Shown: positions 13,796-54,270, numbered from the stretch's first letter. The stretch: DNA of 64,000 nucleotides from an uncultured Nitrospirales bacterium (GCA_964609965.1 CAZSTS010000001.1:3191-67190), one strand, 5' to 3'. A program made the numbers and translations. Notes: a model not told the origin generated them from the sequence alone.

Positions 13796-13865
13796 GATTC
13801 CCCTAAAATCTCTATTGCCAAACGCCCTTCAATTCACTAAATATTCTGCCACGAATGCGTCTATC

Positions 13866-13978
13866 GGCTACGGTTACGAAGCCCGTATCGTTTAGCGGTT
13901 TGGGTTACGTCAATATTTCATCACGTAACCATTACCGATTGACGAAACGGGCTTCGTAACCATTACCGACAGACGATG
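13866..13978. repeat. MITE/REP-like palindromic intergenic element (CGTAACC/GAAGCCCGT words); related inverted copy at 26996-27105
   Basis: Internal inverted arms ggttacgaagcccgtatcg / cgaaacgggcttcgtaacc. Bases 13882-13911 match the reverse complement of 27061-27090 at 29/30. Confidence 0.65.
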
Positions 13979-26995: not shown

Positions 26996-27105
26996 ACGTA
27001 TTTCGGTTAGGGTAACGAAGCCCGTTTCGTCAGGTGGTTACGGTAACGTGTTGTAATTTGGACGTAACCCAAACCGATAAACGATACGGGTATCGTATCC
27101 GTAAC
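26996..27105. repeat. MITE/REP-like intergenic element, inverted relative of 13866-13978
   Basis: Bases 27061-27090 are the reverse complement of 13882-13911 (29/30). Also carries gaagcccgt and cgtaacc words. Confidence 0.65.
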
Positions 27106-27110
27106 CGAAG

Positions 27111-37008: not shown

Positions 37009-37710
37009 ATGAACACACACATTATCATTCCAGCTGGTGGTTCTGGCATACGTTTTGGTGGCAAGGATAAGAAGCAATTCTTAACTCTTGGTGGCGAATC
37101 AATTTTGAATCAGGTCATCAGTCTCTTCGACAAACTTTCATTCATTAAATCAGTTTCGGTGAGCTTGCCTTTTGACGAGATTGACAGACAAGTAGAAAAT
37201 CCTGATTGTTTCTATCAAAGTGAAAAAGTTCATTACATGATTGGTGGTAAAACGCGTTCAGCTTCGGTTTACCAGGGATTTATTCATCTTAAAAAATGTC
37301 AGGATGATGATGTCGTTCTTATCCATGATGCAGTTCGTCCTTTAGTCTCTCAGTCACTTGTCGAAAAGATCATTGAAACTACAAAGGTGTTTGGGGCTTG
37401 TGTGCCCGCATTGAAAATGACAGATACAGTAAAAAGAGCTAGCAGAAAAAACATGGTGATAGAAACTATACCTAGGCATGACCTTCATGCAGTTCAAACG
37501 CCACAAGGTTTTTTATATGGTAAGCTAAAAGAGGCCTATGATAGCATTGATTATCGAGATGGCAAGTACACTGATGAGGCTATGCTCATGGAGCTTACGG
37601 GGGTGCCTGTGAAGATTGTAGAGGGTGATGTAGAAAATATAAAAATCACAGCGCCGTTTGATCTAAAGATTGCGGAGGAAATATGGAATGCAAAAAAGAA
37701 ACAAATCTAA
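37009..37710 (+). CDS. ispD: 2-C-methyl-D-erythritol 4-phosphate cytidylyltransferase
   Basis: [12 protein letters not shown] and VLIHDAVRP motifs. Confidence 0.85.
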
Positions 37711-37886
37711 AAAACTGTAATTGCACATATGAGCCTTGTTCACGAAAAGGCACATGCTGTGATTGCATCTTGTATCATGTCAAAAGTCGACAACTACCTG
37801 CTTGCTGTTTTCCGACAAGTGCTGAGAGTACCTATGATCGTTCCTTTGAATTTTTTGCAAAACTTGTGAATGATGGGGATGTTTAA
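37683..37886 (+). CDS. Small Cys-rich protein (67 aa), hypothetical
   Basis: CNCTYEPC...GTCCDC...ACC, 11 Cys in total. Its 3' end is duplicated at 39060-39147. Confidence 0.5.
37797..37886 (+). repeat. Direct repeat copy A (~88 bp) flanking the kinase cassette
   Basis: About 88% identical to 39060-39147, including a 34-nt identical core ttcctttgaattttttgcaaa...cttgtgaatgatggggatgttt. Confidence 0.8.
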
Positions 37887-38917
37887 TAAGATCTAGGTGC
37901 TTTATATTTTGGTGGATTGTCTTGTAACTTTCGAAATATTGCTAAAAGTGGTTTGTGAGGAATGCGTTTCGTAGGATCTTTTTCTAGCATTCCAGCGAGG
38001 AGTTCATTGAGCTCAGGGCAATTTTCTAAAGGAATCATTGTTGCTGTTTCATGGATGTCTTTGAGAAAATAGTAAGGCATGTATTCATCAGTTTCTTCAT
38101 CTCTCATTTCTGCATAAGGATCTTGACCAGTTAACATGCGATAAAGGCAAATACCAAGGGCGTAAACATCTGTAGTTTGGTGTAATTGATAGTTCCAGAG
38201 TTCTGGAGCCATTTGAACAGGTGAGCCTTTTGCTTTTATGTCTACAACAAGATCTTCACTAGAAGGTATTTTCTCTCCATAAAAATGGCCTCCAATACCC
38301 CAATCACCAAGCATATAATCGAAAACATTACCTGGCTTGACATCACCATGGATAGTTAGAATACCTTTGGCTTTACCAGCCTCTAGAACATCAGATAATG
38401 CTTGTAGAATAAAACCTGCAAAGAATAATGCGCCAGTTACTTTGAGGTGTCCAAGCAATTCTAGGATATCTTTTAAACATTCGGTACCTACATCTCTAAT
38501 AAAGCAATAAGCGCCATTTACATACCCATGATCATAATATCGTGGAATATGAGGATTATCTAATGGATTCAGAATCTCACTGGCATAGGTAAATTCTGCT
38601 GACATAGTTTTGACTGCATTTTCTCTAAACTTGATATTGCTGGATGGTTTTTGTGTTATCTTTAATCTATCTCTAGGTGCGATTCTACGAATTCTATCAT
38701 GAAGATATCTAGGAGGATTTTTTTCATCGCTTCTAGCTACATTTATTGCCAAGGGTGGTAATTGATTATCTTGATTTTTGGGTTCTAATAAAAAAACATC
38801 ACAAAAAGAACCACTTCCTAAATACTTTGATACAGTATATAATTCAGCGGCCTGATTTAGGGGCATATCAAAATTTGATGAGCGGGTTAAATGACTTGTT
38901 AGCTTAGGAGAAAACAT
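37883..38917 (-). CDS. Soluble eukaryotic-like Ser/Thr protein kinase, atypical (HGD catalytic loop, DWG instead of DFG)
   Basis: Gly-rich loop GSGSFCDV, catalytic [16 protein letters not shown]. No TM segment. Confidence 0.75.
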
Positions 38918-39059
38918 AAATTGTCTTCTAAATTATTAATTAGTTTTAAAGAGGGAACTCTATGTAATGTTATTATTTATACACCCATATTTATAATCAT
39001 CTGGAGATTATGTCTGTTTATCGGAAAATGAAATCAAAAGTTGCTTAAAAAAAAGGGGA

Positions 39060-39147
39060 ACCTGCTGTTTCCCGCCTAGTGCTGAGAGCACATACGATCG
39101 TTCCTTTGAATTTTTTGCAAATCTTGTGAATGATGGGGATGTTTGAT
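39060..39147 (+). pseudogene. 3' remnant of the Cys-rich small gene (direct repeat copy B), no start codon
   Basis: In-frame ...[32 protein letters not shown] directly after a TAA stop. Confidence 0.7.
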
Positions 39148-39529
39148 GCGCTTGCCCTGAGCGATCCCGAGCTTGTCGAGGGAGAGTCGAAGGGTCTGAC
39201 GTGAGAAGAAAATCTTACATCCGGCAGTTTATATCTAACAGCTATTCTTTTATTTAGTATTTCCATGATATAATTACAAAATTCCATCTCAGTTTATTTT
39301 CATTTATCTAGCAACATCTCTTCCTCATTTTCGATAAGAATAATAATTATGGGTGACCGAAAGACAGGGTCATAGGGTATAGGATTAAACAAAAAAATAT
39401 AATGAGAAGATTTGGACACAATAGTGCCCGAAATCTTATTAAAATGGGAAACTTCAGTTGCTCAAGTGCGATCCTATTATAAGAATTGGTATGATAATGA
39501 CTTATGAGTAAATGATTAAGGAGACAACC

Positions 39530-42500
39530 ATGGCTAATCCAATCTATTCAGATATTTTAGATGTGAATGATAGTGGGCATTTTGATGTACCAGATACGCA
39601 TATCATTAAAAAATCTATCAAGGAACAGGATACACAAATTGCTTTACCACCAACAGAAGAGGGTGTTTTTTATATTGTTGATAGGTCTAATTTGTTTGCA
39701 GCATTTGAAGAAATAGAAGGGTGCGGGGAGCAAGGTAATTGTTCCGAGATCAATGGTAGAACTCTCCAAACTTCATTTTCTGTTTCTCGTCCATTAGCCC
39801 AAACCTTAAATGATCAGAAATTAGATCAAGTAACATTAGAAAATATCGATGTCTTTTTAAGGCAAATTGAAGGTTGGAACACTGATGGAGAGACAAAAAT
39901 CGATTGCATGTCACGTTTAATCGCAGCGCTTTTTCTTGATCCCAGTTCAATGCAGGAGAAAAAGAAATGGTTGGCAGATCACACAGGGGAGAATCCAAGT
40001 GAAAATTTCGTAGCCAGTGTTCAAGTTGTTAAAGAACGATTAGAAGTGGCACGGGATCCAGAAGTTCCGAATGAACAGCTTAGCCATGTCATTGAAATAT
40101 TCGACGTGTTTCTTGTTATGGCAGAGCTCAGCCAATATATTCATCAGGTAGAGGAATCTTCCTTAGATCCTGATGGATTTATGAGAGATATTAACATGGC
40201 AGATTTAGATGGGATGACTTTTTTTACAACGCGCGGTTTTTACGTCCCTAAAGCTATAACGTATGAAGATCGTGATGTCTATGCCGCTTACCTTAAGCTT
40301 GTAGAAAAGCATGTTGTTTTACATTATTATTTTAAATTTGGCATGTTTGAGTTTTTTGAGACACCTGAGCGTTTAATTAATACTCGTGTTGTTATTTCTG
40401 CAGAGGAAAATCCCGAATCAGGACAGATTGAAAAACCAAGAGTTGAACTGAGAAAAAGTTTAGATGGTGCATTCATGCCATCAATCAGAAAGGCTTTTCT
40501 GGATGGGTTAGAAGGGCCAAAAGAGTGGGCAGAAAAAGTCTTTGATGAAGGTGTCATGAAATTGCCTGAAACTGAGGCGCATCCGTTATACCAAGTATTT
40601 GGTAATGTTTTTTTAACCTTAGATACTGATTCTACCAATCTGTCAGGAGCATTAACAGGCTTGGTTGTCTGGGAAGAGGGCGTTGAGGAAGGGGATAAAA
40701 CACCTGAGGCAACTTGGCAGCGACTTCTTGGCGAAGTGGAGACATATCCTGTCATTGCCTTGAAGAAAATGTCTCTTTACGTGACTTACGAAGCCATGGG
40801 AAGAGTAAACGATTATGAGCAATTGAGTCGAGAAGACTGGTGTGCGCTTTATGCACTTGGTCCAAGGCCAGGAACACCACAAGAAGTCATTGATGCCTTT
40901 AATAACAGTGCGAGAAATTGGGTTTTTGGAATTAATCCAAGTTTTCTAAACACAGATGGTAATCCAGAAGGTGCGGAAACAAAAAAGGAACCTATTGAGG
41001 AATACATTGATCTCATCCATGAGTTGCATTCGCAAGATGAAGGTGGAATTTCTGATGAAGTTTTTCTGGCACATAGGGAGTACATAAAAAAGCTTATCTA
41101 TTTGCAAGGTTTAATGCTTTTGGGCCAAGAAACAACAGACGATGGTATGTTGGCTTCACTTTCCACAGTGAGCCTGGCATTGCAAAACCTGTACCGTGGT
41201 GATGAAGCTGCCTATCGAGAGGCTTTTGTTTTATTTGAGGAGTTTAAGGTCGATGAAATCATTGATGAGACAGGCTTGGATGTTGGAAACATTAATGCAG
41301 AGTGGTTATTTGATTTAAGAGAACAAGCTGATGAAATGAGGGAAGATATAAAGTTCACGGCCCTTTATACACAAAACCAGCAGATTCTTGAAGCCACTGG
41401 AGATCTCAAAGATGACCTACAAACAATACAAGATGGCATCACTACACTGATTGATGGACAGAGACAAATATTAGACCAAGCTGACGAACAACTTGGAGAA
41501 TTTAATTTCAAAAACTTAGCTGCTAGCACAGGTCGAACGGTTGTTAGAGCTGTCATAGATAAGAGAGTAGATGCAATTACGGATTTGGCTGATGAACTCA
41601 TCATTGGTATTTCGCAAAGCATTACATTTGACGGTGACATTAAAGATGGTCTTGTTCAGCTAGGAGAGAACTGCGCTGATTTTGCCTTTGCGCAGATGAG
41701 GGCTATTTTAGAAAGGCTCATGGCCAATAATCAAGAAATGAGAGAAATTTTTGGGCCTTTCATAGAAATGATAGAAGATGGCGATGTTTCTGTAGATGAG
41801 CTTAGAACGCTTTTAAATACAATCAAAACAGAGAATCCCGCTCTATTAGATTTATTGTCAGTGGATCTTCCAGAGCTAGAGGCTCTCATTGATGAAATAG
41901 AATTTTACAGAGGAATAGTAGACGATATTCTCGGAATTATTGGAACAGTGACAGCGTTGGTTGATGCCTTTGAGAGCTACGCAAGAGATATTGAAAGAGT
42001 TGGAAAGGCAATTGCTGATAGACCCACAAATATTGTTGCTCTGTGGCAGAGCAATAAAGAAACTCTTATGCAGCATGAGGCAAGTATCCAGGGATTGCTT
42101 GACACACTTGAAACTCAGATCAGTGAATTTTCAGAGGGGATAGAAGGTCGCTACGCTAATTCGCCCGTAGTAACAATTCTCAATGAAGTGGCTGCTTCTG
42201 TAGGAAAAACAAAAGAGGTCTTAGAGGTTCTTTCTTTTACAAAACTCAATGAGATGATCAACAAACTTGCAAGAAAGCTTGCTGAGCATCTATCTTGGGT
42301 CAACAGAGGCTTCATTGATCTTAATTATGGAGAGTATGGCTTTCAGACAGGTTTAGCCCTGGAACAAGAACTCTGGAATTTCTTAAGACTTGGTGGGACA
42401 ACCTATTTTGATACCTCTCACACCCTTGGTTTTGAGGGACATGTTTGCTTGTCTGCTAAAGCAAATGATCTCACTTTTGATGGTTGTGCTGGTGTGGGTG

Positions 42501-42760
42501 GTCCGTTTAGAGCAGCTCCTGGAGAGAAGGCTCATAAGCTTGTTCCTCAAGATCCGTACGGCTTTGCTTCTTTCTTGGTTGGCATGAGAGGCTTAGGTCG
42601 ATTAGGCGTTACCTATAGCAGAGATTTTGGTATTGTGGGAGATTACCCTCCTTCAAATCGCCTAAGTATAGTTTTCATGGTTGCTCCTATACCTACTAAG
42701 GGCAAAAAGATTGAAGAAGAAGAGCCTGTTTTGACGATCCAGGCTCCAGACGATGAGTAA
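39530..42760 (+). CDS. Large acidic hypothetical protein (1077 aa from Met 7), orphan
   Basis: Start at the ATG preceded by taaggag. No signal peptide and no recognisable motifs. Central coiled-coil-like region and a Gly/aromatic-rich C-terminus. Confidence 0.6.
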   Translation: MANPIYSDILDVNDSGHFDVPDTHIIKKSIKEQDTQIALPPTEEGVFYIVDRSNLFAAFEEIEGCGEQGNCSEINGRTLQTSFSVSRPLAQTLNDQKLDQVTLENIDVFLRQIEGWNTDGETKIDCMSRLIAALFLDPSSMQEKKKWLADHTGENPSENFVASVQVVKERLEVARDPEVPNEQLSHVIEIFDVFLVMAELSQYIHQVEESSLDPDGFMRDINMADLDGMTFFTTRGFYVPKAITYEDRDVYAAYLKLVEKHVVLHYYFKFGMFEFFETPERLINTRVVISAEENPESGQIEKPRVELRKSLDGAFMPSIRKAFLDGLEGPKEWAEKVFDEGVMKLPETEAHPLYQVFGNVFLTLDTDSTNLSGALTGLVVWEEGVEEGDKTPEATWQRLLGEVETYPVIALKKMSLYVTYEAMGRVNDYEQLSREDWCALYALGPRPGTPQEVIDAFNNSARNWVFGINPSFLNTDGNPEGAETKKEPIEEYIDLIHELHSQDEGGISDEVFLAHREYIKKLIYLQGLMLLGQETTDDGMLASLSTVSLALQNLYRGDEAAYREAFVLFEEFKVDEIIDETGLDVGNINAEWLFDLREQADEMREDIKFTALYTQNQQILEATGDLKDDLQTIQDGITTLIDGQRQILDQADEQLGEFNFKNLAASTGRTVVRAVIDKRVDAITDLADELIIGISQSITFDGDIKDGLVQLGENCADFAFAQMRAILERLMANNQEMREIFGPFIEMIEDGDVSVDELRTLLNTIKTENPALLDLLSVDLPELEALIDEIEFYRGIVDDILGIIGTVTALVDAFESYARDIERVGKAIADRPTNIVALWQSNKETLMQHEASIQGLLDTLETQISEFSEGIEGRYANSPVVTILNEVAASVGKTKEVLEVLSFTKLNEMINKLARKLAEHLSWVNRGFIDLNYGEYGFQTGLALEQELWNFLRLGGTTYFDTSHTLGFEGHVCLSAKANDLTFDGCAGVGGPFRAAPGEKAHKLVPQDPYGFASFLVGMRGLGRLGVTYSRDFGIVGDYPPSNRLSIVFMVAPIPTKGKKIEEEEPVLTIQAPDDE

Positions 42761-51640: not shown

Positions 51641-51654
51641 TTGTCTCATTTTCC

Positions 51655-51800
51655 AATCCCAGTCCCATTTATGAGACTTAAGTGAGACTCATTTGGGACT
51701 GAAATATCAAATCAATAAGATCTAACCTGTTGATATTTTATCTATAAATATATTTAACTCTTTGGCATGGTTGGTGCAATATAGCTCTTAAAGGAGATGT
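51655..51800 (+). repeat. ~150-bp repeated intergenic promoter element, copy 1 (second copy 53293-53443)
   Basis: About 85% identical to copy 2. Begins cccagtcccatttatgagacttaagtgagactcatttgggactg. Confidence 0.8.
51763..51779 (+). promoter_or_regulatory. Sigma-54 -24/-12 promoter candidate TGGCATG-N4-GTGCAA inside repeat copy 1
   Basis: GG (51764-51765) and GC (51776-51777) are exactly 10 nt apart. Confidence 0.5.
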
Positions 51801-51874
51801 ATGCCTTGCTATACTCAACTTTTTCTTTGTTTTTTTTGAGCGAGAAAAGTATAATAAGATATACATATAGATAT

Positions 51875-52135
51875 ATGTATAAACTACTTTTGTCTGAAGT
51901 TGTTAAAAAGCAGTGTAAAAATATTCCGAGAAAAGACTTGGAAAAGATTAAAAACATCGTTTCAGAATTGAGAAAAGAACCACGACCTAGAAAGTGTAAG
52001 AAGCTTAGTGGTGGAAAACAAGAATATAGAATCAGGTATCGTTATTGGAGAATACTATATTCTGTTTATGATAATAATAATAATAATACCATTGTTGTTT
52101 ATGGTGTTTTGTCAAGGAAGGAGGCCTATCGATGA
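51875..52135 (+). CDS. RelE/ParE-family type II toxin (ORF track start 51797; Met at 51875 fits family length)
   Basis: KKLSGGKQEYRIRYRYWRILYSVYD...TIVVYGVLSRKEAY signature. Contains an in-frame (AAT)5 Asn run. Confidence 0.7.
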   Translation: MYKLLLSEVVKKQCKNIPRKDLEKIKNIVSELRKEPRPRKCKKLSGGKQEYRIRYRYWRILYSVYDNNNNNTIVVYGVLSRKEAYR

Positions 52136-52335
52136 AAACTGTGTCCGTAAAACTTGATGATTATGTACTTAGCCTTTTAAATTCAGAAGCAAAAAAACGA
52201 AAAGTAACCCGTATGGAGATCATAAGATCCTCAATAATCAAATTTCTACTTAGTACAAGTGATGCTGAAGATTTGGAATATATCAAAAATCATAAAAATG
52301 ATAAATTAGTGGGTTTTGATAAGGTGTTTAAGTAA
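52132..52335 (+). CDS. Ribbon-helix-helix (CopG-like) antitoxin
   Basis: KTVSVKLDDYVLSLLNSEAKKRKVTRMEIIRSSI. Overlaps the toxin stop as ATGA. Confidence 0.65.
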   Translation: MKTVSVKLDDYVLSLLNSEAKKRKVTRMEIIRSSIIKFLLSTSDAEDLEYIKNHKNDKLVGFDKVFK

Positions 52336-52405
52336 TCGATCCCAAAACCGCAGTCATTCGTTAGCTACTCGTCGAAGCGCTCATGTCGAGGAAGAAAATG
52401 GCGTG
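52336..52405 (+). pseudogene. 3' remnant of a brnA-like antitoxin gene (~90% identical to 54193-54264), interrupted by in-frame TAG
   Basis: atcccaaaaccgcagtcattcgttagct...gtcgaagcgctcatgtcgaggaagaaaatggcgtga aligns with the end of the 54010-54261 gene. Confidence 0.65.
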
Positions 52406-52451
52406 AGGGGGGTATTTGTAATATTCATAAACATAATGTATTAATTACTTA

Positions 52452-53294
52452 GTGAAAAATCTTCATTACACACCACAGTCTCTCATCAAAAAGTTACAAG
52501 AACTTGATAAAGAATTAGACTGGAAAGAGTTATTAAGAAATGGCTATCAGAAATCTGCTGTTTTTGATGCTGATGGGACTTTGTGGAAAGACAATCTTTC
52601 AGCGAGAATGATAGAAGAAGATACAAGGAATCGAAACCTGTCAGAAAAAGGCCTTAATGCTTTAAATCAGCATTTAATCTATTTCAATCTAGAGCCACAA
52701 GAGACGATTTATTTGGCTAAAGCTAAATTGACTGAAGCTTTCTGGAGTGGAGAACTGTATAAAATAGCAAAAGACCTTAAACCATCTTTGAATGAAGATG
52801 AAGTGCATGAGAAAATATGGAATCATTATAACTTGCTCTATGTTGGTTTATCACCACAGGAATTAGAAGAGAAAGCCACACGTTTTTTGGAGCAGGGTTT
52901 TAAAGATAACTTTTATAAAGGCATGGAAGAGGTTATTCGTTATTTAAAAAGAGCTGGATTTAAACTCTACGTTGTAAGTGCTGGAGTACATGAATTCGTG
53001 ACTGCTGGGGCTCGCTTGCTTGGTTTTAACAAGAGTGATGTTCATGGATTGAAATTAAAGGTGGTAGATGGGCTCATCACTTCCGAAACCGAACTTCCTG
53101 TTACGTATAAGGATGGAAAAACTCAAATAGCAACGAAGTTGTGTGGAGGAAAACCTTTTCTTGTCTTTGGTGATTCTGTCTCTGGTACAGATGAAAAAAT
53201 CTTAGAAGAAGCGTATTTTCCTGTGGCAGTTGAGCCTGAGGGTAAAGATCTAAAAATAGCTCAGGAAAAGGGGTATGCAATATTAGGTTTCTAG
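52452..53294 (+). CDS. HAD-superfamily hydrolase (subfamily IB-like)
   Basis: Motif I VFDADGTLW and motif IV GDSVSGTDE. Confidence 0.65.
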   Translation: MKNLHYTPQSLIKKLQELDKELDWKELLRNGYQKSAVFDADGTLWKDNLSARMIEEDTRNRNLSEKGLNALNQHLIYFNLEPQETIYLAKAKLTEAFWSGELYKIAKDLKPSLNEDEVHEKIWNHYNLLYVGLSPQELEEKATRFLEQGFKDNFYKGMEEVIRYLKRAGFKLYVVSAGVHEFVTAGARLLGFNKSDVHGLKLKVVDGLITSETELPVTYKDGKTQIATKLCGGKPFLVFGDSVSGTDEKILEEAYFPVAVEPEGKDLKIAQEKGYAILGF

Positions 53295-53443
53295 TCCCAG
53301 TCCCATTTATGAGACTTAAGTGGGACTCATTTGGGACTGATGTTTCAAGTCAATAAGATCTAACCCATTGATATTTAATCTATAATTAATTTTCACAGAT
53401 TGGCATAGTTGGTGCTTAATCATATCTTAAGAAAGGAGATATT
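53293..53443 (+). repeat. ~150-bp repeated intergenic promoter element, copy 2
   Basis: Same inverted-repeat head and tail as copy 1. Contains the SD aaggagatatt before the ATG at 53444. Confidence 0.8.
53401..53417 (+). promoter_or_regulatory. Sigma-54 -24/-12 promoter candidate TGGCATA-N4-GTGCTT inside repeat copy 2
   Basis: GG (53402-53403) and GC (53414-53415) are 10 nt apart. Lies 27 nt upstream of the ATG at 53444. Confidence 0.5.
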
Positions 53444-53710
53444 ATGAATAAGTATCCATATGAACTCATAAAGTACTCATCTTTTGGTTATTATGCCTTT
53501 GGTGAAAGTGATTTCATCATTACACCTCCACAGTGTTATCTTGATTTAGGAAGTTCAAAAGCAGAAAGACAGGAGCGCTTTCGCCAAATGGTGGATTTGA
53601 TTCTCAAACATGATTTTCCAGATGCCACATATTGGGAAGAGTATGCTTCAGTCAGCAATCCATTCTGGGTATGTGAACGGTATGAAGAAATTGTGGAAAA
53701 GCTAAATTAA
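53444..53710 (+). CDS. Hypothetical small protein (88 aa)
   Basis: Good SD and a sigma-54 candidate promoter upstream. No motif recognised. Confidence 0.55.
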   Translation: MNKYPYELIKYSSFGYYAFGESDFIITPPQCYLDLGSSKAERQERFRQMVDLILKHDFPDATYWEEYASVSNPFWVCERYEEIVEKLN

Positions 53711-53774
53711 TCTAAGTAGATAAAGGATATATTAATAACATTGCAAATGCATATCAATTTAATATATAATAAAT

Positions 53775-54047
53775 ATGTATTCGTGGGATAATAAGAAGAA
53801 TAAGAGTAATATTCAAAAACATGGTATTAGTTTCGAAGAAGCAAGAGATCATATTTTTGAAAAGGATAATATTTTAGTAACTAATGTAGCCTACAACAGA
53901 GGTGAGAAACGTCATGCAGTGATAGGTAGGTACCTAGATAAATACTATGTTGGGATATTTACTTTCAAAAGAAAAACGATTCGAATTATTTCAGTGAGGA
54001 GGGCTCGCTATGAAGAAGAAAAACAAGCAAAAGAAAAAGGACTTTGA
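53775..54047 (+). CDS. BrnT-family (DUF497) type II toxin
   Basis: SWDNKKNKSNIQKHGISFEEA...RIISVRRARYEEEK matches the BrnT signature. Confidence 0.75.
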   Translation: MYSWDNKKNKSNIQKHGISFEEARDHIFEKDNILVTNVAYNRGEKRHAVIGRYLDKYYVGIFTFKRKTIRIISVRRARYEEEKQAKEKGL

Positions 54048-54261
54048 TCAAGAGTTTTCAGACGGAAAAGTGGCTGTTGATTTTACTGCCGGTGTTAAAA
54101 CAAGTGGACTCAGTCGTGTAAAGAAACTCCCTCCTATGACAATTCCTGCCTGGCTAAATGCCGAAATTGAAAAAATATCCAAATTACAAGCCAATCCCAA
54201 AACAGCTGTCATTCGTCAGCTTCTTGTCGAAGCGCTCATGTCGAGGAAGAAGATGGCGTGA
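54010..54261 (+). CDS. BrnA-family RHH antitoxin
   Basis: C-terminal RHH TIPAWLNAEIEKISK...AVIRQLLVEAL. Overlaps the brnT end. Confidence 0.7.
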   Translation: MKKKNKQKKKDFDQEFSDGKVAVDFTAGVKTSGLSRVKKLPPMTIPAWLNAEIEKISKLQANPKTAVIRQLLVEALMSRKKMA

Positions 54262-54270
54262 TGGATGAGA

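Follow-up and report, generated by a model that had tools for sequence, protein, structure and literature searches.

The locus described here lies in a 64,000-nucleotide (nt) stretch of DNA from an uncultured Nitrospirales bacterium (GCA_964609965.1, CAZSTS010000001.1:3191-67190), which we call the window and whose positions are counted from its first letter. On the plus strand, ispD (37009-37710; Pfam IspD, E 2.5e-51) encodes 2-C-methyl-D-erythritol 4-phosphate cytidylyltransferase and is the conserved upstream anchor of the locus. Its end overlaps by 28 nt (37683-37710) the start of an intact plus-strand gene (37683-37886) for a 67-aa protein with nine cysteines that belongs to the family DUF6485 (PF20095, E 9.7e-11). 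Because of this overlap, the DUF6485 gene is probably co-expressed with ispD. Convergent with it, tail-to-tail on the minus strand, is the gene for a 344-aa stand-alone protein with a kinase fold (37883-38917; Pkinase, E 3.7e-16). Beyond the kinase start lies its AT-rich leader or promoter region of 145 nt (38918-39062, minus strand, 26% GC), and beyond this, at 39063-39147 on the plus strand, is a second copy of the 3' end of the DUF6485 gene, which reads in frame to a TGA stop and has no start.

The last 27 codons and stop of the live DUF6485 gene (copy 1, 37803-37887, plus strand) and this start-less remnant (copy 2) form a direct repeat. By repeat finder and local alignment, the two copies match without gaps over 85 nt, 77 of which are identical (90.6%; blastn E = 4.5e-28), at an offset of 1,260 nt. 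A preliminary description of the window had placed the repeat at 37797-37886 and 39060-39147, at about 88% identity and with a 34-nt identical core. The repeat survived alignment, with its limits and identity revised as given here, but the core did not: the longest identical run is 26 nt and the next is 22 nt. The same description had called copy 2 an in-frame, start-less remnant, and this was borne out. It has an in-frame stop upstream and no ATG, GTG or TTG start, matches the DUF6485 tail at 92.6% over 27 aa (tblastn) and retains only the last two of the nine cysteines. Copy 2 probably has no present function. The unique segment between the copies (37888-39062, 1,175 nt) contains the coding sequence of the kinase and its 145-nt leader only. 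The kinase is the sole open reading frame (ORF) of at least 60 aa there and is on the minus strand, as had been described; its stop codon (TTA on the plus strand, 37883-37885) is supplied by copy 1 and overlaps the DUF6485 stop codon.

The homology has sharp edges. Local alignment of 120/145 nt upstream and ~120/150 nt downstream found no similarity beyond the repeat; the flank scores were reached by 353/500 and 287/500 shuffles, the upstream score being 10 against a shuffle mean of 10.6. On the right, the homology ends at the stop codon, where coding constraint ends, and on the left it ends within a TGCT-TGCT/ACC microhomology. These edges are consistent with a recombination junction. Neither the repeat nor the flanks of the kinase were found again elsewhere, and no inverted repeats bracket the insert.

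In seven contigs from JGI, ENA and Logan, each assembled independently, the 2.6-kb region holding this structure was matched at 99.96-100% identity, although one of them stops ~100 nt short of the region. The source is metagenomic, and two strains might in principle have been joined during assembly at a common DUF6485 tail. Since the same structure is found in seven contigs from different samples and pipelines, we exclude such an artefact for practical purposes. Over a longer range, seven contigs (L001-L005, L091 and L092) from seven samples in three repositories were 99.94-100% identical to window positions 27875-48919, over up to 21 kb. The sampled population is essentially clonal.

We then compared the two copies base by base. 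By codon position, the eight differences are at 3, 1, 3, 3, 3, 3, 3 and 2, so that 6/8 are at third positions. Five are synonymous, one more falls in a codon that another difference also alters, and one replaces the stop TAA by another stop, TGA. There are two amino-acid changes, T45P and K60N, both at positions that vary within the family. The reading frame is intact, and 7/8 differences leave the protein and stop unchanged. In simulations, the probability of at most two amino-acid changes with an intact frame was 0.001-0.007 if all eight hits were neutral, and ~0.03-0.10 if the repeats were born identical and a neutral remnant then took ~70-85% of the later hits. Most of the differences lie within the first 33 nt (6/33 compared to 2/52 in the remainder, Fisher p = 0.05), which may reflect a conversion tract. 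Both copies carry the family-rare residues S46, S49, F57, N63, D64 and D66, and because they have these in common the copies are each other's closest relatives and both of this lineage. Because the substitutions are mostly silent and the stop was kept, the copies seem to have diverged as working genes. The pattern modestly favours tails that diverged within working genes and were then joined, or of which one was truncated, relatively recently.

The DUF6485 assignment of the live gene is firm: the protein scores 42.4 bits against the PF20095 cutoff of 24, its residues 8-64 covering profile positions 3-67 of 70, and all nine cysteines align with the consensus of 76 homologues among the matches listed. 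A metagenome scan with a DUF6485 alignment listed at least 80 loci encoding DUF6485 proteins that match all 67 residues at 64-78% identity, with the nine cysteines conserved. The gene is single-copy in all 80 other loci listed, as far as the available flanks reach (up to 6 kb), and in these flanks we found no partial DUF6485 copy, no adjacent ispD and no adjacent kinase. The family is widespread and highly conserved. A literature search found no paper on DUF6485 and none on the sample accessions. Public gene calls place a wrong-frame 46-aa ORF (window 37729-37869; L001 11049-11189) where the DUF6485 gene lies here, and the gene is also uncalled in the nearest relative (L008 3028-3231). Because public gene callers miss it, an exact look-up of the 67-aa protein gave no match, and the family is under-represented in protein databases.

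In the nearest sampled relative (L008/L009), IspD is 55% identical to that of the window, and the DUF6485 protein encoded after ispD in L008 is 73% identical to the 67-aa protein. In the gene table of the relative's 559-kb contig, the order DnaB...DnaJ-DUF4013-M15-TrpE-TrpG-IspD is kept to one side, and DnaK to the other. In the DNA from TrpE to DnaK, synteny is kept from TrpE to IspD, a single DUF6485 gene follows ispD, and unrelated genes come after it; no kinase and no second DUF6485 fragment lie in this interval. The nearest relative therefore has the 'empty site' that the preliminary description had predicted, namely ispD followed by one DUF6485 gene with neither kinase nor remnant. The order M15-TrpE-TrpG-IspD is common to relatives. 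Those more distant (IspD 47-50% identical; loci L173, L174 and L175) have ispD-ispF-cysS instead of ispD and DUF6485. The adjacency of ispD and DUF6485 is thus a feature common to the clade containing the window and L008. In the same clade, ispF has been relocated away from ispD, and the interval downstream of ispD is a rearrangement hotspot. A scan of genome contigs by IspD alignment returned, among the matches listed, distant taxa only (31-42% identity).

The protein encoded between the repeats passes the Pkinase profile PF00069 with 59.8 bits against a threshold of 31.7. Its AlphaFold2 model has a predicted local distance difference test score (pLDDT) of 78 and a predicted template modelling score (pTM) of 0.80, with disordered residues at 1-16, 69-91 and 224-228. 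Foldseek matched the model with probability 1.00 to many solved kinases, including CaMKII, PKA and PknB, and gave no specific affinity. The preliminary description had regarded the kinase as non-canonical on account of HGD in place of HRD and DWG in place of DFG. Both motifs are present, but they are minor departures since the catalytic Asp residues are kept: H190, D192, K194, N197, D205 and G207 are all retained. Gly stands at the Arg position of HRD in 5/59 aligned kinases, DWG is the normal motif of CK2, and HGD and DWG are both found in active kinases. The true anomaly is the loss of the Lys-Glu pair that anchors ATP. The β3 Lys is replaced by N59, compared to Lys in 56/59 aligned kinases, and the αC Glu is replaced by A112, compared to Glu in 54/59; MAFFT and an independent profile alignment concur on the assignment of both columns. 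In addition, a 39-residue insert lies between β3 and αC, and the stretch from the catalytic loop to DWG is 5 residues shorter than in the profile. The glycine-rich loop, GSGSFCDV, contains no Lys.

Searches of 5.8e9 and 1.84e9 sequences returned a sole close relative of the kinase, P0002 (L006/L007 10001-10939), which is 46% identical. P0002 has Ser and Ala at the β3 Lys and αC Glu positions, a glycine-rich loop (GQGGYSDV) that likewise contains no Lys, and, in HGDVGREN, no catalytic-loop Lys. The loss of this last residue strengthens the case for a subfamily of pseudokinases, and the kinase is probably a lineage-restricted pseudokinase or a non-canonical enzyme. P0002 comes from the same samples but from a different contig and an unrelated gene context; its locus contains no DUF6485 fragment, and its neighbours share nothing with those of the kinase. 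It is presumably a paralogue, and the subfamily appears to be found only in this organism. Since the neighbours of P0002 have no counterpart at the kinase locus, we rejected a module of kinase and partner. The preliminary description had proposed a comparison of GC content and codon usage: the third-position GC content (GC3) of the kinase gene is 0.22 against a window mean of 0.327 (standard deviation 0.053), which makes it slightly AT-rich at third positions, and its codon-usage distance is ordinary for the window. This composition is consistent with a related rather than a distant source. We also considered an antiphage defence kinase. The PADLOC models PD-T4-6 and MADS6 matched the protein with E-values of 1e-19 to 1e-22 (1.7e-19 for PD-T4-6), but the same models gave 9e-69 for the PEGA-domain kinase of the window and 2.5e-81 for P0013. 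Ordinary kinases thus score 50-60 orders of magnitude better, no partner defence genes are present, and the candidate was rejected. Among PHROGs, only a generic kinase family was matched.

From the repeat, its edges, the intact and the truncated copy, the kinase-free relative and the mostly silent pattern of substitution, we infer as follows where the segment came from, which way the event went and how recombination took place. Our preferred and most economical account, held tentatively and at somewhat less than an even chance, is that a segment comprising a DUF6485 tail and the kinase was imported from a closely related lineage by homologous recombination and displaced the resident tail. Ancestrally, ispD would have been followed by a single DUF6485 gene. 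In the donor, a closely related lineage, the kinase would already have stood tail-to-tail against DUF6485, and the tail, kinase and leader would have entered by homologous recombination through DUF6485 sequence. This might have happened by one crossover event of a circular intermediate of ~1.26 kb (Campbell type), or with one end joined through homologous recombination and the other through microhomology. The latter type of event, homology-facilitated illegitimate recombination, is described in PMC3240628, both in naturally competent bacteria and in E. coli conjugation. Either route would give a layout of repeat, unique segment and repeat: the imported DUF6485 tail and kinase would form the present live arrangement, and the last 85 nt of the resident gene would have been pushed 1,260 nt downstream to become a dead remnant. 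We regard the locus as the footprint of an old recombination event without visible mobile-element machinery.

Several observations weigh against this import. No donor lineage is known, and the one other public member of the kinase subfamily comes from the same samples. The IspD search returned nothing between 55% and 100% identity, so that there is no sister genome for comparison, and the 'empty site' is known solely from a distant relative in which the whole interval from ispD to dnaK differs. The sampled contigs, at ≥99.94% identity, show no presence/absence polymorphism. Finally, the substitution test disfavours an origin in situ only weakly (p ~0.03-0.10).

Such an origin in situ, in which the 85-nt tail was copied within the same genome and the remnant has been neutral since, is the alternative that we take most seriously, although we consider it unlikely. 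The kinase would either have stood beside DUF6485 already or have been inserted at staggered nicks 85 nt apart, and the tail might have been copied by template switching, by fill-in of a staggered break or by tandem duplication and deletion. This account needs no unseen donor and fits a kinase subfamily that is native to the organism and a kinase gene of ordinary codon usage; the substitution pattern is compatible with it at the p ~0.03-0.10 given above. However, an intact frame and 7/8 differences neutral for protein and stop are unexpected if ~80% of the hits fell on a neutral remnant. The route by tandem duplication would require at least two precise steps, and a target duplication of 85 nt far exceeds any known transposition footprint. 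Target duplication by a transposon or insertion sequence was rejected: the repeat is 85 nt at 91% identity, compared to identical duplications of 2-15 bp, and there are no inverted repeats and no transposase. The coding-type divergence of the copies would be accounted for if they are old tandem paralogues, both under selection, between which the kinase landed while deleting the 5' two-thirds of the downstream copy; the sharp left edge would then be the deletion or insertion junction. We nevertheless consider this, a modified form of the second possibility in the preliminary description, improbable. DUF6485 is single-copy in L008/L009 and in the 80 other loci listed, the homology stops exactly at the stop codon, which would have to be the end of the duplicated unit too, and a separate insertion of the kinase would still be needed. 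The decayed tandem duplication that the preliminary description offered as its second possibility is disfavoured by the same single-copy state and by the lack of homology outside the 85 nt.

Its first possibility, insertion of a cassette, was borne out in part. An intact DUF6485 gene and a displaced 3' fragment of such a gene do enclose the kinase, the edges are abrupt and an empty site exists, but there is no sign of site-specific recombination or of a mobile cassette. An integrated island classically has direct repeats that stem from the 3' end of a conserved gene, and this layout and the 26-nt identical run count in favour of a mini-island integrated at the DUF6485 3' end by a tyrosine or serine recombinase, with the repeats as attL and attR and the recombinase since lost. 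The insert, however, is 1.18 kb with one gene only and has no tRNA, neither the repeat nor the kinase flanks recur, and P0002 has no such flanks. Of the called neighbours within ~10 kb and the 26 other window ORFs scanned, none was an integrase or transposase, ~16 further ORFs of at least 150 aa remaining unscanned. As no integrase, transposase, tRNA or attachment-site machinery was found nearby, site-specific insertion is unsupported, and we consider it very unlikely. Two ~90%-identical repeats of ~85 nt, one of them at a gene 3' end, might also recall a diversity-generating retroelement, with a variable repeat at the 3' end and a template repeat ~1.2 kb away. Here, the sole gene between the repeats is the kinase and there is no reverse transcriptase; nor are the differences adenine-specific, with A at 1/8 differing sites in copy 2 and at 4/8 in copy 1. 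With reverse transcriptase and adenine bias both absent, we exclude a retroelement with near certainty.

Around these features, the neighbours of the locus run from IspD through DUF6485, the kinase and a 1082-aa orphan to DnaK. The orphan gene (39512-42760, plus strand) lies outside the repeats, divergent from the kinase. Its product matches no model of Pfam, NCBIfam or PADLOC and gave just one weak match, to a PHROG (E 3e-4), and the DNA of L008-L010 encodes no homologue. Directly 3' of the remnant is a unique 54-nt stretch (39148-39201, no strand assigned) of 65% GC in a genome of 39% GC, which is single-copy in the window and was seen solely in contigs of this species. Its translation is LSDPELVEGESKG and that of the reverse strand is PFDSPSTSSGSLRAS. 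We found no other copy of it, no stable fold and no Rfam match. We take it to resemble the short GC-rich repeats often seen in metagenome-assembled genomes; presumably it belongs to the flank that originally lay downstream of the displaced gene. Searches for RNA families (including Rfam), tRNA and transfer-messenger RNA found none present. A promoter and terminator scan gave no convincing signal above chance, and the consensus scan found no promoter in the kinase leader (38918-39062), the region from which the kinase is probably expressed. A weak terminator-like hairpin on the minus strand (39056-39073; a T8 run follows its 5-bp stem) lies across the left junction of copy 2, one of its arms belonging to the remnant and the other to the kinase leader, and would block minus-strand transcription from reaching the leader. 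A kinase transcript starting upstream of the remnant could include 85 nt antisense to the DUF6485 mRNA.

Elsewhere in the window, two toxin-antitoxin units (51650-54264) have conserved ends in common. At the 5' end, 128 nt (51650-51777 and 53288-53415) are 86% identical and include an internal imperfect palindrome; at the 3' end, 71 nt (52339-52409 and 54194-54264) are 90% identical. Unit A encodes ParE and a ribbon-helix-helix (RHH) protein, and unit B an 88-aa ORF, BrnT and a BrnA-like ORF. In unit B, the BrnA-like antitoxin gene ends with these 71 nt as coding sequence; in unit A they are non-coding, a remnant that contains an in-frame stop. Between the units is a gene for a HAD hydrolase, and before unit A one for a Macro-domain protein. 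A further repeat is a palindromic element of ~112 nt (13858-13975), with two 53-nt arms that are 12 nt apart and 79% complementary; its second copy is inverted, 13 kb away (26997-27108), at 82%. It looks like a small repeat of the repetitive extragenic palindromic (REP) or miniature inverted-repeat transposable element (MITE) kind.

As at least two displaced tails, those of DUF6485 and of unit A, are present in the genome, gene-tail scars recur in it, and gene replacement driven by recombination appears to be recurrent. A bolder and improbable extension of this is that the 1.26-kb unit of DUF6485 tail, kinase and leader is a minimal recombinase-free cassette that moves from one related genome to another, and could loop out, by homologous recombination at the highly conserved DUF6485 3' end. 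If this were true, the locus and the toxin-antitoxin units at 51.6-54.3 kb would together mean that short conserved gene ends serve this lineage as landing pads when cassettes are exchanged.

The locus is a known kind of phenomenon, an insertion scar flanked by a duplicated gene end, which carries an unusual orphan kinase; neither the scar nor the kinase overturns current understanding. It is a clean and datable example of one gene being added beside a conserved housekeeping operon without mobile-element machinery, leaving a displaced tail behind, and this displaced-tail signature can serve as a marker when events of this type are sought in lineages that are poorly sampled. The kinase and P0002 together offer a natural test of whether bacterial kinase folds work, or are repurposed, without the Lys-Glu pair while the catalytic loop is kept.

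Among known systems, the locus resembles the attL/attR arrangement of islands integrated at the 3' ends of tRNA or protein genes, in that a conserved gene is intact at one end and a displaced 3' copy lies at the other. It differs from them in having no recombinase, no tRNA, one cargo gene in 1.18 kb, and repeats that are 9% diverged instead of sharing a long identical core. The antiphage kinases PD-T4-6 and MADS6 are likewise stand-alone, but the match to them is generic and partner defence genes are absent here. The HGD and DWG motifs are shared with non-RD kinases and CK2, from which the missing Lys-Glu pair sets this kinase apart. WNK1 and WNK3 were its best sequence matches in the PDB, and ULK4 was also matched. 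As in WNK and ULK4, the β3 Lys is replaced (N59 here) and the HxD, Asn and DxG motifs are kept. In WNK kinases, a Lys of the glycine loop acts as the substitute, whereas the corresponding position is Cys39 here and Ser in P0002, and the αC Glu is also lost. Unlike WNK and ULK4, the kinase further has the 39-residue insert and a catalytic loop 5 residues nearer to DWG than in the profile. For the scar itself, the comparison is with Campbell-type integration and homology-facilitated illegitimate recombination, a match we infer from the end product alone. In both, a short homologous segment anchors foreign DNA and the insert comes to be flanked by, or next to, that segment; microhomology (ACC/TGCT) at the non-homologous joint is a further likeness.

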